This document shows, one piece after another, positions 32,522 through 50,034 of a DNA stretch of 64,000 nucleotides (the first letter of the stretch is position 1; every line of letters begins with the position of its first letter). Made by a program: the position numbers and the translations under genes. Origin of the DNA: an uncultured Archaeoglobaceae archaeon (GTDB taxonomy: Archaea; Halobacteriota; Archaeoglobi; Archaeoglobales; Archaeoglobaceae); contig CBEUCM010000004.1 in the NCBI GenBank assembly GCA_965541645.1, positions 767 to 64,766 of the forward strand, given 5' to 3'. Below the pieces are notes generated by a model. The model made no database searches and was not told the DNA's origin. It saw only the letters and a program-made list of their open reading frames with translations.

Positions 32522-33389
32522 AATCCATGCCCTTCTTGCCCTCACGATGTTTATCTGGGCTGGATCCTTCATCTTCATCAAAGTTGGACTTAGGGAGCTT
32601 GACCCTTACAATCTGGCATTTTACAGGTTCCTGATCGCTTCACCCCTGATTTTTCTCTGGGTTTTTCTGAAGGGGAAGATAGTCCCACTCAGGTTGAGTG
32701 ACCTCCCCTATATTGCGGTTCTCGCTCTCTCTGGAGTGTCACTGCTCTACGTCTTTCAGTTTGTTGCTCTGGAGTACACAACTGCCACCAACGCAGCGAT
32801 CCTCATCAACACCTCGGCGCTGTTCGTTGCAGTTTGGGGCTTCATGAAAGGAGAAGCGAGTGTTAGAAAAATTGTAGGTGTACTAATCTCATTTGCAGGT
32901 GTAATTCTGATCGTATCGAAGGGCACATTGAACTTCTTCACCTCGAGAACGTTCTTGGGCGATGTTTTGATGATAGTGGATGGTGCGCTTTGGGCTGTTT
33001 ACACAGTTCTCGGTTCCAAGATGCTTTTGAAGTACGATCACGAAACGCTTACAGCATACTCCTTTGCTTTGGGAACTCTATTTTTAATTCCGTTTGTTCT
33101 GTGGACTGGAATCTCAAACATCGTTTTAGCAGGTCCTGAAACTGTGGTTGCGTTACTTTACCTCTCAGTTCTCTGCTCTGTCTTTGCATACGCTGTATGG
33201 TACTACGCCCTGTCGAACTCAGATTCAACCAGTGTGGCGGTTTACGTTTATCTTGTTCCGCTTTTCACGGCAATATTTGCATATTATGCCCTTGATGAGG
33301 TACCGGACATCTTCACGGCTGTTGGAGGGATGATTACAATTGCTGGTGTGTACCTGACGGTCTTCACTGGAGCTGAGCTTTCAAACTGA
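32511..33389 (+). CDS. EamA/DMT-family transporter
   Basis: Ten predicted TM helices in two EamA repeats. Confidence 0.88.
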   Translation: MNSKIHALLALTMFIWAGSFIFIKVGLRELDPYNLAFYRFLIASPLIFLWVFLKGKIVPLRLSDLPYIAVLALSGVSLLYVFQFVALEYTTATNAAILINTSALFVAVWGFMKGEASVRKIVGVLISFAGVILIVSKGTLNFFTSRTFLGDVLMIVDGALWAVYTVLGSKMLLKYDHETLTAYSFALGTLFLIPFVLWTGISNIVLAGPETVVALLYLSVLCSVFAYAVWYYALSNSDSTSVAVYVYLVPLFTAIFAYYALDEVPDIFTAVGGMITIAGVYLTVFTGAELSN

Positions 33390-44824: not shown

Positions 44825-45541
44825 TTAAAAGTTGCCTAAGCTCTGCAACCTTAAGTCTGAGGCTGGAAAAACAGGACCGTCGGTGCAAACCCTAAGCCCG
44901 TTTTCAAGCACGCACGATCCACACACACCGATCCCGCATCTCATGTACTTCTCAAGGGAGAATTCTACCTTGTGGAGCACTTCAGCCTTCTTGAAATGCT
45001 TGTATAGGGATGCGAGCATCTCCATCCTTCCGCAGGCATAGATTTTTGAATATCCATCCAGATCCTCCTTTTTCAGTGCATCCAGCACCGTGCCTTTGAT
45101 GCCCGCACTGCCATCCTCTGTAGTTATTACCGCATCCTCAAACTCTTCCATCCATATTATCTCCTTCGAAGATTTTTCACCGTATATCACTCTGACTCTG
45201 CCCCCACATCTCTTGAGGTAGTCATGAAGGTACTTGAGCGGTGCTATGCCTATTCCACCTGCAATCAGCAGTGCGTTATCTGTGAGGCTGAAAGCTGAAC
45301 CGAAAGCACCTCTAATTCCCACAACACTTCCTGGTTTTATCTCAACAAGGGCTTTAGTTGTCTCTCCCACAGCCCTTACCGTGACTGAACTTGGTGAGGA
45401 AAGGCTCAAGGGGACCTCCTCGAATCCCGGAAGATACAGCATTATGAACTGTCCTGGAAAAGAGGTGATTTTTATGCTGAAATGCAATGTGGAGGTTTTC
45501 TCGTTGTGTCTCTCTACCTCTGTAACCTTTGCAGAGTACAT
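44825..45541 (-). CDS. pyrK: Dihydroorotate dehydrogenase electron transfer subunit
   Basis: PGQF.M, E.PLSLS, IAGGIGIAPL, M.CGIGVCGSC, VC.DGPVF. Confidence 0.88.
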   Translation of the reverse strand: MYSAKVTEVERHNEKTSTLHFSIKITSFPGQFIMLYLPGFEEVPLSLSSPSSVTVRAVGETTKALVEIKPGSVVGIRGAFGSAFSLTDNALLIAGGIGIAPLKYLHDYLKRCGGRVRVIYGEKSSKEIIWMEEFEDAVITTEDGSAGIKGTVLDALKKEDLDGYSKIYACGRMEMLASLYKHFKKAEVLHKVEFSLEKYMRCGIGVCGSCVLENGLRVCTDGPVFPASDLRLQSLGNF

Positions 45542-45632
45542 GCAAAAACTGTCCTTTGCAGGTTATTAGAGTTTATGTGCATGAGAACTACAGGATTCAC
45601 CGGCTATAGTTGTTATAATAGTAATTAGATAT

Positions 45633-45714
45633 TTCTTGTGCATGATTATAATTACTATAATGTAATCATTATAATTGTCGTAAAATTTAAATATCCAATA
45701 ATCGTCATTACAAT
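45633..45714. promoter_or_regulatory. Array of ATTATAAT-like boxes around a TATA box
   Basis: ATTATAAT at 45645 and 45668, ATTACAAT at 45707; TTTAAATA at 45686-45693; SD GGAGGTGG at 45716-45723. Confidence 0.5.
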
Positions 45715-45728
45715 TGGAGGTGGTGTCG

Positions 45729-45794
45729 ATGGAGAGGAAGGATAGGAAGGAAGTGGAAGAGACCTTCAAGAGAATCAGACTGTACTTCGGTTGA
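45729..45794 (+). CDS. 21-aa peptide ORF (not in the ORF track)
   Basis: MERKDRKEVEETFKRIRLYFG. Strong SD 5 nt upstream; its TGA overlaps the TTG start of the UbiA gene (TTGA). Confidence 0.55.
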   Translation: MERKDRKEVEETFKRIRLYFG

Positions 45795-46720
45795 AGTTTA
45801 AGATGCAGGATAGTAGAGTACATATCGTTTATAAGCTTCTAAAGTTGGGAGCAACCCCAACAACTCTTGTTTATCCCATACCTTTGATCCCTATTTTTGC
45901 GTGGTTGCTTGCATCGGCTTCTGTCCTTGATCTGTTTGTGGTGGTGGCCTTTGTATCGCTATTTTACAATGCGATAAATCTCTGGAACCACCTAAACGAT
46001 CTTGAGGAAGACCTCGCAGCGGGGAAGAGTGGCTCACAAGTCCTCGTTCAAGTTAGGGATAAGGTAAAAACACTGGTTATTATTTTATATTTGGTTTGTT
46101 TTTTTATTGTGTTGATACAGTCCAAGACACAGTCTGCTGCATTACTGTATGTTGTTGTTGCAGCTGTTACATGGTTATACTCCGACAAAATTTATTTTAA
46201 AAGAATTTCCGGTTTCAGACTTAAGGAGAAATATCAGTGGGAGCTTCTGACATACATTGTTGTACCACCTGCTTTTTTCGCGCTGATCTGGGCTTTGATA
46301 TCGGTTTTCTCGTACAGGGCAATGGCTTTTGTGTCTGTGTCATCGATTTACTATCTCTCTGGAGCGTTGTTGAAAGATCTGAAAGACATAAGTAGTGATA
46401 TGGAGGCAGGGTATGCAACTCTCGCCGTTGTATTCGATCCGCAAATTCTATTTAAGACCTCGTTGCTTCTTAATTTTCTTAACCATGCGCTGATAGTATT
46501 TTTTTCGATGGCTTATTTGCCTATTGGTTGTATTTTTGGATCTCTTACGTTTTTTGTACTGCTCAAGGTTCTACTCGACATGCGTAGATACGGATGGAGA
46601 TTGGGTTCCGAGGTTTACAATACTTTGAAACTGTATCCCTTAGTGTATCCCACATCTTATTTGTTGATGGTCCTCGGAGTGGTGTTTACTCAAGCCTTAG
46701 ACTTACAAGGGTTCTGGTGA
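45791..46720 (+). CDS. UbiA-family membrane prenyltransferase
   Basis: NHLNDLEED, YS...FRLK and KDLKDISSDMEAGYATL motifs with many TM helices. Confidence 0.9.
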   Translation: MKFKMQDSRVHIVYKLLKLGATPTTLVYPIPLIPIFAWLLASASVLDLFVVVAFVSLFYNAINLWNHLNDLEEDLAAGKSGSQVLVQVRDKVKTLVIILYLVCFFIVLIQSKTQSAALLYVVVAAVTWLYSDKIYFKRISGFRLKEKYQWELLTYIVVPPAFFALIWALISVFSYRAMAFVSVSSIYYLSGALLKDLKDISSDMEAGYATLAVVFDPQILFKTSLLLNFLNHALIVFFSMAYLPIGCIFGSLTFFVLLKVLLDMRRYGWRLGSEVYNTLKLYPLVYPTSYLLMVLGVVFTQALDLQGFW

Positions 46721-47966
46721 GGTTAACACAAATGTTCTTTTCGATCTCGCTCAAATACTTCCTCCTAAGGTTTTTTGATGTGTAGGAAGGGTATGAAGTT
46801 ATTATACTGTAAACGTTCTTTTTGGCGGTTAAAAGCTTGTGTATCCTTTCTGCGTACATCAATATGAAGTTCTGGTCTATCGCGGTTAAGTTGTCAGAAA
46901 CTCTCTCAAACTCATCCTTTAAATATTCTATACCCCCTCTTACGATCTCCCCCACGTACAGGGATTCTGGTGAGAATGTATCGAGTTCGAAAAGCGATGG
47001 GTATATTTCTATTGGATACTCCAGCAAACCTAAAGATGCGCCGCCGAAAGTTTCCGTACTTATAAAATATAGTGCATAGGGTGTTGCTGCGGAAAACTTA
47101 CCGTCTTGAAGATCCTGTGAGATGTCATGCCGTTTGGTGAACAACTTTACAGATTCCAAAAACTCGCTTAGTTTCAAGCCGTTGATATGACCAACAGCGA
47201 TCCCTTTCTTTTCCACAAATACCTCTTCTCCTATTGCAAACTCTTTTTTTATAATCTCCTTTGTTTCTTGGATACTTTCTCCTCTTTCAGGCAGCGTGTC
47301 TGTGAAGTCACTTTTCATATCGTTCTGAAAACTTATAACCGTGACCCCACGACCAATCTTCTTACCATTTACAGCAATAACAGGCAGACCATATTTCATC
47401 TTAATCGGAAAAATGTTGAAGGAAATAGCACCGACACCAGCGTCTCTGAATGGTCTGAGCATCCTGTTAATTGGGTATATCAATTCATTCTGGTAGATTT
47501 CTGAAGCTTTTTCAAGCACGCGGTAGGGGTCGGACTTGTAATTGGAGTATAGCCGTTTTAGTTTCAAAATAATTTTAATAGCTTGCAATCTGCTTTTAGG
47601 ATATAGCAGTGGGTATATCAGCATGTTAAATTTACCCTTCTTCATCCTATTCATCTTGCCAACAACTTCGTCTGGAGTACCTTTGAGCACGTGCAGTGTG
47701 TACTCGGTATCTATCAGCAGCAGCAAGCACCCCCTCGTCCAGACAGACTCGGGGGTCATGTACCCCTCAACAGGCATACAGACGGAGTTGCACTCAACGA
47801 GCTTTGAAAAGTCGCCGAAGTTGTTTATCAGGCTATCCGTCAAAAAGAATATTGCCAGGTTTGGTTTGAAGTCAATTTCCTGTATCTTCTTTTTGAGGTC
47901 CTGTATAGCCTCCTTGGCTTTTGGATATGGCGTATAAACGAACCTATACATGTTTTTGAAACTCAC
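46686..47966 (-). CDS. Uncharacterised 426-aa protein, weak FIST-domain-like N-terminus
   Basis: Long ORF coupled to the upstream gene; KPNLAIFF...PVEGYMT...GCLLLLI recalls FIST_N. Family call is tentative. Confidence 0.5.
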   Translation of the reverse strand: MSFKNMYRFVYTPYPKAKEAIQDLKKKIQEIDFKPNLAIFFLTDSLINNFGDFSKLVECNSVCMPVEGYMTPESVWTRGCLLLLIDTEYTLHVLKGTPDEVVGKMNRMKKGKFNMLIYPLLYPKSRLQAIKIILKLKRLYSNYKSDPYRVLEKASEIYQNELIYPINRMLRPFRDAGVGAISFNIFPIKMKYGLPVIAVNGKKIGRGVTVISFQNDMKSDFTDTLPERGESIQETKEIIKKEFAIGEEVFVEKKGIAVGHINGLKLSEFLESVKLFTKRHDISQDLQDGKFSAATPYALYFISTETFGGASLGLLEYPIEIYPSLFELDTFSPESLYVGEIVRGGIEYLKDEFERVSDNLTAIDQNFILMYAERIHKLLTAKKNVYSIITSYPSYTSKNLRRKYLSEIEKNICVNLTRTLVSLRLE

Positions 47967-48288
47967 TTTTTACCGATTCAAGGTCGGTCCTCAACTTGAA
48001 AAGGGATACGTCTTCGTGAGCAAGCACACACAGAATGAGTGTTTTGGATAGGGGATGCAGGATTAGGTGCGAGTTCTGAAGCTGAAACTCAGCCTTTTTG
48101 AAATACCCCATGAAAATGTAGTTTATCAGCACTTCTACCTGGTTCTCAAGCCAGTCTATCACCGATATTATTTTTCGATCCTTGAAGTGGACATAGATAG
48201 GTACACCGTCAACTCGGTATATCCCTGCAAAGAGTACCCCGTCATCGTAAATGAGGGGTTTTAGAATTTCCTCAATCAGCTCCTTCAT
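47944..48288 (-). CDS. Roadblock/LC7-like protein
   Basis: 114 aa; helix-GVLFAGIYRVDGVPI...LILCVLA...LFKLR.DL pattern. Confidence 0.65.
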   Translation of the reverse strand: MKELIEEILKPLIYDDGVLFAGIYRVDGVPIYVHFKDRKIISVIDWLENQVEVLINYIFMGYFKKAEFQLQNSHLILHPLSKTLILCVLAHEDVSLFKLRTDLESVKSEFQKHV

Positions 48289-49073
48289 ACCACTCTCCTT
48301 TTGATTTTCTCTACGTCTTCAGGCGTTATGCAACCCTTCTCGGCCAGCTCCGTCAACTCTTTTTTTGCAAGCTCCGAGAGATTTATCCCGTTGAGGTCGG
48401 GTGTGAACCCTTCTCCCCTTTTTTCCTCTATAACAATACCAACTCCTTCGACAATTCTATATGGGTACACACCATCAGCGTGCCTCGACATTCTGTGCTT
48501 GACAATTCTTAACGTTCTGCTGTACAGCTCTCCAACACCCACATTTTTCAGCTGTATAACGGAGTCAGCAAGGAAAAGCGATATGTTTGACAGCGCACTG
48601 GGCTCACCAATGAATGGCTCTTCGAGTGTTACAAGTGCTGTACCGTACTCTCGTAGAGTCTTGAAAAAGAATCCTACAGATGATCTTGAGCTGTAGTCGG
48701 CAGAAGCAATAAGCGGAGAGAAGGAATCGATAACTATTCTCAAATCTTTACCCCTCACAAATTTGATCAGGTCGCTATCCAAAAATGAGGCATCCTTAAC
48801 GTAAAACTGCCCGATTTTCAGCTGCCCGGTTCTGACGTATTTTTCAAGATCCCAGCCCATCGACTCAGCAATTCTGATAAACTCCTCTTCGGTAAGATCT
48901 ATTGACACATACACTCCCCTTTCACCAGCTTCCAGTCCTTCGAGAAGGTACTGTATTGAGAATATCGTCTTTCCGCATCCCGTTGTGCCAATTAGTGCAT
49001 TAACTGTGTTTTTGACAAATCCCCCGTACAGTAGTTCGTCCAGTCCGAAGACGCCGCTCTGTATTCTTGTCAT
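48285..49073 (-). CDS. KaiC/RAD55-like ATPase
   Basis: IQSGVFGLDELL.GG, intact Walker A GTTGCGKT, VIDS, LADSVI.L, IVKHR.S.H. ATG 49073 preferred over 49097. Confidence 0.9.
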   Translation of the reverse strand: MTRIQSGVFGLDELLYGGFVKNTVNALIGTTGCGKTIFSIQYLLEGLEAGERGVYVSIDLTEEEFIRIAESMGWDLEKYVRTGQLKIGQFYVKDASFLDSDLIKFVRGKDLRIVIDSFSPLIASADYSSRSSVGFFFKTLREYGTALVTLEEPFIGEPSALSNISLFLADSVIQLKNVGVGELYSRTLRIVKHRMSRHADGVYPYRIVEGVGIVIEEKRGEGFTPDLNGINLSELAKKELTELAEKGCITPEDVEKIKRRVV

Positions 49074-49281
49074 GATTATAATTTGATTGCTTATCATTAT
49101 TATAGTTTTTTGTTCTGGGTCTTATATCCTCAGAAATCAGTTTTATCGCTTTTTTTGAGTTATTCGATGGGTAGGAGGGGTTCGTCACAAAAATTGACTT
49201 TTTTGGGTGAAAATCTTGCACTCACTTTTTTGACGATTCGTAGGAAAACTTTTAAATATTGCTGTGTTTTAGCATTCCACA

Positions 49282-49488
49282 ATGATGGCCGATCTTCCTG
49301 ACAATCTGAGAAGAACCGTGCTTGTCCTCCTGAGGCTCGGAGAGGCAACGGCAGAAGATGTTGCCCGCCATTCTGGTAGGGGTAGATCGACGGAGAGCTA
49401 CTATCTTAACCTGCTGGCAAAGATGAATATCGTCAAGAAGAAAAAGATGGGACGTAAAATATATTTTTCAATTAATGTTGATGAGTAA
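49282..49488 (+). CDS. Stand-alone winged-helix protein (TrmB/ArsR-like, 68 aa)
   Basis: L..T..VLL.LGEATAEDVA..SGR.RSTES.YLN.L..M.IV.KKK.GRKIYF. Confidence 0.8.
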   Translation: MMADLPDNLRRTVLVLLRLGEATAEDVARHSGRGRSTESYYLNLLAKMNIVKKKKMGRKIYFSINVDE

Positions 49489-50034
49489 ATTATCTAATTT
49501 AGATTTTTATATTTTATTTTTAAATTTAAGTTTTTTTCTGACTATAGTATATTGTATCATAGACTTTTACTTGAACCATATATTTATTTGCCCAATATTT
49601 TTATTCCAAATTACCTGAAATAAATCTTTTTCGGTCTGCCGAAAATCGTCGAATTCGGTGGCTCGGTTGTTACAAAAATTATGTGAATATGGTCAATGTT
49701 GCGTGTTTAAGGGGGGGTAAATGCAAAAATATGTTGGGTTGTTGCATCAAACCCGTTTTGGCTGTGGAGTTGTTACATCTTTTATGGAATAAATTGTTTT
49801 GGCTATTTTAATAACAAAGTATTGTTTAATTTAATTTTAATCTATATTTTTAAATTTTGATTTTTAATTCCATTTAATTTAAGTAAATTTTAGAATCAAT
49901 TATGTTGTAATCGATATTATTTTTATATCTTTAATAATATATCAACTGTAAATTTTATATACAGTTATTTTACTAAAAGTCGTATAATTGTTTGTTTAAG
50001 AAACCCTTATTAATCGGTAAAACCAGTTATTGGT
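49489..50034. other. Long AT-rich non-coding tract with short repeats
   Basis: About 545 bp with no credible ORF; two very AT-rich flanks around a core with RGTTGTTRCA x3 and a G7 run. Confidence 0.7.

Follow-up and report, generated by a model that had tools for sequence, protein, structure and literature searches.

Archaeal activators usually bind just upstream of the B recognition element (BRE) and the TATA box. In the Thermococcales, TrmBL1/Tgr (with its TGM motif) and SurR show how position sets the outcome, as sites upstream of BRE/TATA give activation and sites over the TATA box or the start give repression by one and the same factor. Among bacteria, the comQXPA locus of Bacillus and the agrBDCA locus of Staphylococcus are polymorphic peptide-pheromone loci. 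For the Archaeoglobi, we know of very few cis-regulatory elements, and KaiC-like ATPases, which have been proposed as archaeal signalling hubs, have to our knowledge barely been tested. Here, we describe a five-gene cassette in a 64,000-nucleotide stretch of DNA (the window; positions 767 to 64,766 of contig CBEUCM010000004.1, assembly GCA_965541645.1) from an uncultured Archaeoglobaceae archaeon. The cassette consists of two converging operons, one for a 21-aa peptide and a UbiA-family prenyltransferase, the other starting with the gene of a KaiC-like ATPase, and a near-identical motif of 20/21 nt is present in the control regions of both. With a probability of about one in two, we read this repeat as one half of an AT-rich, two-box promoter-type module occurring twice in the same orientation and, at the same rough odds, as a shared cis-regulatory module that couples both operons at transcription initiation.

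The elements in question are listed below. The comparison set comprises 12 Archaeoglobaceae loci from which the cassette was recovered; L003 and L001 are sister species with flanks about 74 % identical, and L009 is a distant lineage. L007 and L039 are metagenome contigs of 67.9 kb and 1.2 kb, the latter from the same species as the window.

45633..45653, unstranded: motif copy 1, TTCTTGTGCATGATTATAATT (box A plus a TTCTTGT arm; minus strand AATTATAATCATGCACAAGAA), upstream of the peptide-UbiA promoter; identical in L007, no single-nucleotide polymorphism (SNP) in eight DNA runs
45665..45678, unstranded: companion box B of copy 1, ATCATTATAATTGT, which resembles a TATA box when read on the minus strand and adjoins the peptide-promoter BRE; L003, L001 and L009 all conserve it
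45679..45693, plus strand: predicted BRE (CGTAAAA) and TATA box (TTTAAATA) of the peptide-UbiA operon, with a geometry like that of other promoters in the window; AAAATTTAAATAT is found there in all 12 lineages
49064..49083, unstranded: motif copy 2, TTCTTGTCATGATTATAATT, from -10 to +10 of the KaiC start (minus strand AATTATAATC-ATG-ACAAGAA); identical in L007 and L039, no SNP
49093..49111, minus strand: box B at KaiC, predicted to be the TATA box of the KaiC gene (minus-strand CTATAATAATG), with an A6 BRE; CATTATTATAGTTTTT is invariant in the window, L003 and L001

As a type, the motif is a known one, a promoter or operator element common to two operons. Similar to archaeal leaderless BRE/TATA promoters, the locus displays an A-rich BRE followed by a TATA-like octamer whose start precedes the ATG by about 31 nt, and copy 1 stands head-to-head with another BRE/TATA. 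It differs from such promoters in that the start region (box A) is unusually conserved and repeated elsewhere, and from back-to-back promoters in that copy 1 shows a weak BRE, with no conserved gene behind it. The arrangement also recalls TrmBL1/Tgr and SurR, given that a single motif precedes BRE/TATA at one operon and covers the TATA box and start at the other, with a gene for a TrmB-type winged-helix protein next door. In contrast to these systems, the sequence is unrelated to TGM or to the SurR site, the core itself is TATA-like and the factor is only putative; the winged-helix protein has only 68 aa and carries no sensor domain, and most lineages that possess the cassette lack it.

Results

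A sequence-only reading of the window had reported two near-identical stretches of 20/21 nt in the same orientation, 3.4 kb apart, which differ by one indel and share a palindromic core, and every detail of this description holds: both copies read on the plus strand, one extra G is the sole difference between them, their separation is 3431 nt and the core ATTATAAT is present in each. The reading was also correct in that the operons converge and overlap by 35 nt at their 3' ends, with the UbiA reading frame running to 46720 and a 426-aa reading frame of the opposite strand beginning at 46686. The core is a perfect 8-bp palindrome, a dyad symmetry suited to a dimeric binder, and its three occurrences in the window (45645, 45668 and 49075; 0.54 expected) all fall in the two intergenic regions. 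The resemblance between the copies is about 45 nt long and comprises two AT-rich boxes spaced 22-24 nt apart, i.e. box A and a second box, box B (45665-45678 vs 49093-49106, the latter being ATCATTATTATAGT). The two boxes are also similar to each other (CATGATTATAATT vs AATCATTATAATT).

Two AT-rich archaeal promoter regions with TATA-like words might resemble each other by chance. In a self-BLAST of the whole window, the bare 21-mer with its one gap gives E=0.87, with eight other pairs equal or better (three scoring higher, five tied), and a scan of metagenome contigs returned the 20-mer in 19 unrelated contigs, taken as chance matches, in addition to L039. Other lineages show no above-background similarity between the two regions, which also fits a chance likeness. 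We nevertheless consider this explanation unlikely. Local alignment of the two regions scores 38, compared with 19.4 +/- 2.8 and a maximum of 33 in 500 shuffles, and the regions are reciprocal best partners among ~1400 tiles of the window (38 vs 25 for the next-best pair). Moreover, the second box recurs at a matching spacing, and identity amounts to 32/34 in the boxes vs 5/13 in the spacer (Fisher p=1.4e-4, with the boxes defined post hoc). Degenerate versions of box A (ATGATNANAATT) and box B (CAYTATWATWG) match the 64-kb window three times and twice, respectively (0.23 and 0.06 expected), and all of these matches except one lie within the two intergenic regions, so that the boxes are nearly confined to the two control regions and rare elsewhere in the window; they are also conserved in the sister species. 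The exception, a box-A match at 33330-33341 (ATGATTACAATT), is located in GC-normal DNA at a coding 3' end, ~70 nt upstream of the TATA box of the next gene and with no box B near, and was taken as chance. Even with boxes defined post hoc and a 21-mer at E=0.87, the extended similarity, with its score of 38, is more than chance in its context.

Promoters of the window typically combine an A-rich BRE with a box of the TTTWAAA type; the latter begins 29-31 nt ahead of the ATG, a spacing which indicates mostly leaderless mRNAs. The KaiC gene conforms to this pattern: its minus strand reads CAAAAAA-CTATAATAATG...AATTATAATC-ATG, and the TATA-like octamer with its BRE (CAAAAAA-CTATAATA) begins 31 nt ahead of the ATG at 49073, a geometry also seen at other genes in the window. 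The KaiC mRNA is therefore probably leaderless, and copy 2 would correspond to the -10 to +10 region of the KaiC promoter including the start codon. It straddles the conserved KaiC start (the ATG is the complement of 49073-49071), and its TTCTTGT arm coincides with codons 2-4 (ACA AGA ATA). Copy 1 and its box B have the same layout on the minus strand, where TTATAATG starts at 45674 and is followed, 31 nt on, by AATTATAATC-ATG-CACAAGAA (ATG at 45643), back-to-back with the BRE/TATA of the peptide operon. The sequence at the BRE position (ACGACAA) is only partly purine-rich. On the plus strand, 33 nt separate the end of copy 1 from the TTTAAATA box (45686-45693) of the peptide-UbiA operon; box B is only 8 nt away from this TATA box, and box A lies 22-24 nt further on. 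We rejected a conserved small minus-strand open reading frame (ORF) at copy 1, as neither its ATG nor its sequence is conserved, and judged it unlikely that copy 1 drives pyrK, which possesses a TATA-like box of its own ~27 nt ahead of its start and is replaced by different neighbours in other lineages.

In the window, L003 and L001, no stretch of either intergenic region is better conserved than boxes A and B. Conservation concerns CATTATTATAGTTTTT and CATGATNATNAT at KaiC, as well as ATGATNANAATTA and ATAATCNNTATAAT upstream of the peptide promoter, where it reaches L009. An AT-rich array of TTATAAT-like boxes is present directly upstream of the peptide BRE/TATA (AAAATTTAAATA) in every cassette-bearing lineage. 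Among orthologous loci, the box cores are thus kept at both ends in the sister species, whereas the 20-nt identity and the TTCTTGT arm are not. In a 10 x 10 comparison of KaiC-side with UbiA-side regions, only the window has an exceptional within-genome similarity (38); the other genomes score 13-22 on the diagonal, and pairs from different genomes give 17.2 +/- 2.8.

The restriction of the long identity to this species would suit a neutral relic, i.e. a short piece of the KaiC promoter and 5' end that was copied upstream of the peptide operon in the species ancestor, by local duplication or gene conversion, and is functionless today. In line with a dead 5' end, the copy includes the KaiC start codon and first codons with a frameshifting 1-nt indel, and the minus-strand ORF that it would start is not conserved. 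However, the upstream region aligns position by position with L003, L001 and L009, all of which already have both boxes, and this argues against a recent insertion. In addition, identity is clustered in the boxes and the spacer has diverged, unlike what a uniform recent copy would display, and strains do not vary at the copies. A relic of this kind, too, appears improbable to us.

Transcripts were assessed in four metatranscriptomes of the sample holding this sequence, assembled into unstranded contigs of depth 2-11. RNA contigs span the whole cassette in both alleles (see below), indicating that the cassette is expressed in situ. Two of them cross copy 1 (45436-45771 and 45624-45819), and another starts at 45730; at KaiC, one ends at 49043 and one runs to 49168 (48852-49168). 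The material crossing both copies represents either some RNA or residual DNA. Given that the copies share one orientation and the operons lie on opposite strands, a plus-strand RNA containing copy 1 would be complementary to the start region of the KaiC mRNA and could, by pairing around the start codon, block its translation. The contigs over both copies and the predicted stability of the 20-bp duplex at 37 C (-20.5 kcal/mol) agree with such RNA-level coupling, which we nevertheless hold to be very unlikely: cultivated Archaeoglobus species are hyperthermophiles, and the duplex reaches only -5.9 kcal/mol at 75 C and -3.2 kcal/mol at 83 C, no more than 10 nt of the site would be present in a leaderless KaiC mRNA (-1.8 kcal/mol at 75 C), copy 1 lies upstream of where the peptide operon is predicted to start, and the RNA contigs are shallow (2-7x) and lack strand information.

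The genes of the cassette and its surroundings, and the part of it that differs between strains, are as follows.

45771..48550, unstranded: segment swapped among coexisting strains; identity to L007 at the nucleotide level is 40-72 %, vs 99-100 % in the flanks; both motif copies lie outside
44825-45541, minus strand: pyrK
45730..45795, plus strand: 21-aa ORF MERKDRKEVEETFKRIRLYFG, preceded by a Shine-Dalgarno-like GGAGGTGGTG (45716-45725; GGAGGTG)
45803..46720, plus strand: UbiA-family prenyltransferase (ORF 45791/45803-46720), hypervariable with both Asp-rich motifs kept
46686..47951, minus strand: AF0772_C-family protein, 421 aa from the conserved ATG (426-aa ORF 46686-47966), FIST-like predicted fold
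47944..48288, minus strand: AF0774-family protein, 114 aa
48285..49073, minus strand: single-domain KaiC-like ATPase, 262 aa (a form that agrees with orthologues), first gene of the minus-strand operon
49282-49488, plus strand: TrmB/ArsR-type winged-helix gene, 68 aa, candidate regulator found in this clade only; predicted BRE/TATA at 49243-49258; gyrB is next

L007 is 99-100 % identical to the window on both sides of the exchanged segment and contains both motif copies exactly; its counterpart of window 45771-48550 is L007 4415-7133. The segment holds the tail of the peptide, UbiA, the FIST-like protein, AF0774 and the C-terminal third of KaiC. At the amino-acid level, window and L007 share 39 % identity in UbiA, 60 % in the FIST-like protein, 57 % in AF0774 and 91 % in KaiC, where the difference is confined to the C-terminal third, compared with 99 % in pyrK. 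Any two UbiA alleles are 36-41 % identical and retain both Asp-rich catalytic motifs, which indicates that they are not decaying. Contig graphs of independent runs branch exactly at the ends of the segment, with the L007 allele at the loose ends, and a flank depth of ~115 vs ~59 for the window's allele in run X6 shows that the alleles coexist; both were found together in runs X6, X11 and X19. Recombination between strains has its breakpoints at ~45771, inside the peptide ORF, and at ~48540, inside KaiC, and not at the repeats. Both motif copies are part of the conserved flanks common to different cassette alleles, and neither carries a SNP in eight metagenomic DNA runs, in which nearby positions do vary. 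A 33.8-kb contig (P0032 / P0008) encodes an AF0774 protein 82 % identical to the window's beside an AF0772-family protein only 60 % identical, which suggests that alleles can also be mosaic, with breakpoints within the cassette itself.

The locus shows one hallmark of a pherotype-like system, with a co-located peptide, candidate modifying enzyme and putative sensor parts that co-vary as alleles between conserved flanks. A search of the literature on the AF0771-AF0775 gene set retrieved nothing relevant; as far as could be found, allele exchange in this gene set is apparently undescribed. The five-gene unit (KaiC, AF0774, AF0772, UbiA and peptide) is always intact and occurs in at least four different neighbourhoods.

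The sequence-only reading had offered a recombination scar from acquisition of the block as an alternative, in which the direct repeats would be traces of cassette integration or substrates for excision, and we regard this as most improbable: like att sites or target duplications of genomic islands, the two ~20-nt direct repeats surround a GC-poor block (0.38-0.41 vs 0.49), they bracket exactly the five cassette genes and the cassette changes neighbourhoods, but, unlike such sites, the repeats are off the compositional boundary (the low-GC block covers ~45600-50000, so copy 2 at 49064 is internal to it), neither an integrase nor a transposase nor a tRNA turned up in the block, no deletion, excision product or copy-to-copy joint was seen in eight DNA runs (as contigs, which miss rare forms), the real strain breakpoints are away from the repeats and both repeats coincide with conserved promoter elements.

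Out of 1.84 billion proteins, just 42 represent the tiny AF0772 family. All relatives found for the 426-aa protein come from Archaeoglobaceae (29/29), and none were found in species-representative genomes. The AlphaFold model of the 421-aa protein (pLDDT 90) finds the FIST domains of FBXO22 as its sole significant structure matches in the PDB (E 1.9e-5 and 7.7e-5, probability 1.0, TM 0.34-0.40), and one source names a homologue "FIST domain-containing protein"; as modelled, the protein has a predicted FIST_N/FIST_C fold. PDB sequence searches with AF0772 and AF0774 produced no match, and the AF0774 model (pLDDT 44.6) was unusable.

Discussion

The shared promoter-type module that we favour could act as follows. 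At the KaiC operon, box B would serve as the TATA box with its A-rich BRE (49093-49111), and box A would surround the start codon. The same DNA-binding factor would recognise both copies, be it a regulator devoted to them or TBP/TFB assembling a further initiation complex of divergent orientation. At KaiC, a bound factor would sit over both the TATA box and the start site and thereby repress, and at copy 1, just upstream of the peptide BRE/TATA, it would activate. Alternatively, a divergent initiation complex at copy 1 might compete with the peptide promoter, because just 8 nt separate the two TATA boxes. The converging operons would in this way be coupled, probably with opposite sign, as the position rules of TrmBL1/Tgr and SurR lead us to infer. 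Where transcription starts, which factor binds and with what sign it regulates are all deduced from the DNA. The sequence-only reading had proposed that one regulator co-controls both operons; co-control through an element common to both promoter regions is plausible, given that this element is specific within the window, conserved in its core boxes in sister species and invariant among the strains sampled, whereas the adjacent winged-helix gene is mostly absent from other lineages and the long identity is species-specific.

Several observations weigh against a shared module. The 21-mer alone is within chance for a 64-kb window, and no third site or regulon was found, either by a two-box scan of genome contigs (a set without this species; 14 matches, all chance and in unrelated organisms) or by the 20-mer scan of metagenome contigs. 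Within the comparison set, this species alone shows the TTCTTGT arm and the 20-nt identity, and in nine other lineages the two regions are no more similar within a genome than between genomes. At KaiC, the motif is partly coding (codons 2-4), with the AGA Arg codon accounting for TCT there, and at copy 1 neither the minus-strand ATG nor the 25-aa ORF behind it is conserved. The candidate winged-helix regulator is restricted to the window's clade and missing from most cassette-bearing lineages. Unstranded, low-depth RNA contigs cross both copies, a poor fit to simple transcription starts at the motif. Finally, the core is TATA-like, and two AT-rich promoter regions may look alike without a common specific factor.

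The exchanged alleles invite comparison with comQXPA and agr. Similar to these loci, a small peptide gene lies beside a prenyltransferase gene, a divergent block with the peptide tail, the enzyme and putative sensor parts is placed between conserved flanks, one breakpoint falls inside the gene of a downstream signalling ATPase and alleles coexist in one population. The differences are that the enzyme is of the UbiA family and not ComQ-like, that histidine kinase and response regulator are missing, that the peptide has no evident export signal and neither Trp nor Cys, and that the host is an archaeon. The FIST-like fold and the allele polymorphism are compatible with the idea of a producer/receiver pair. 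By analogy with bacterial pherotypes, the cassette might be a self-contained system for recognition or communication in archaea, with the motif copies as its shared, allele-independent switch. The 21-aa peptide with its variable aromatic tail would be prenylated by the hypervariable, catalytically intact UbiA-family enzyme and sensed via the co-varying FIST-like protein, AF0774 and the C-terminal part of the KaiC-like ATPase, and several specificity alleles would be kept side by side in natural populations. In its entirety, this scenario is speculative and we regard it as doubtful.

The two-box element ties the KaiC/FIST operon to the peptide-prenyltransferase operon and offers a concrete, easily testable handle on both. 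The allele exchange may matter more than the motif, given that the cassette is swapped as a unit between otherwise identical, cohabiting strains; such exchange is typical of loci under frequency-dependent selection, with roles in recognition, signalling specificity or virus interaction.

Other features of the locus

PADLOC identified no defence-system match for the cassette proteins. An ORF of 21-27 aa is positioned directly upstream of UbiA in all lineages (the window and L001-L012) and follows the pattern ME[ER]KD.RKE.E..FK..[RK][LI][FY]... Its charged N-terminal part is strongly conserved and its last 4-5 residues are variable, with tails such as LYFG, LFAG, LFVG, LYYG, LFMG, IYGG and IYYA. 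The peptide has no Pfam family, and most records did not call a gene at this position.

The neighbourhoods of the cassette (L001-L013) are gyrB/winged-helix gene on one side and pyrK on the other, Fe-ADH and pyrK, TyrRS or SBP and a PAS sensor, and rpL10e and a radical SAM or DUF2150 gene. In every case, the neighbour on the UbiA side is divergently oriented. In the window, the 45600-50000 block, which includes the winged-helix gene and an AT-rich spacer, has 38-41 % GC vs ~49 % elsewhere.

Two RNA contigs (49119-49453 and 49188-49417) reach 95-160 nt upstream of the winged-helix gene, unlike the leaderless start at 49282 that its TATA box (49251) predicts. This material may stem from residual DNA or from a transcript heading towards KaiC, either antisense or read-through.

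Rfam searches of 44-51 kb returned no match, including the 540-nt spacer between the winged-helix gene and gyrB (49490-50030). This spacer is ~75-85 % AT and contains internal repeats ~330-357 nt apart (e.g. 49505/49835 and 49520/49873). RNA contigs start near 49704-49716, far upstream of the gyrB start, and the spacer could be a long gyrB leader or an unannotated RNA.

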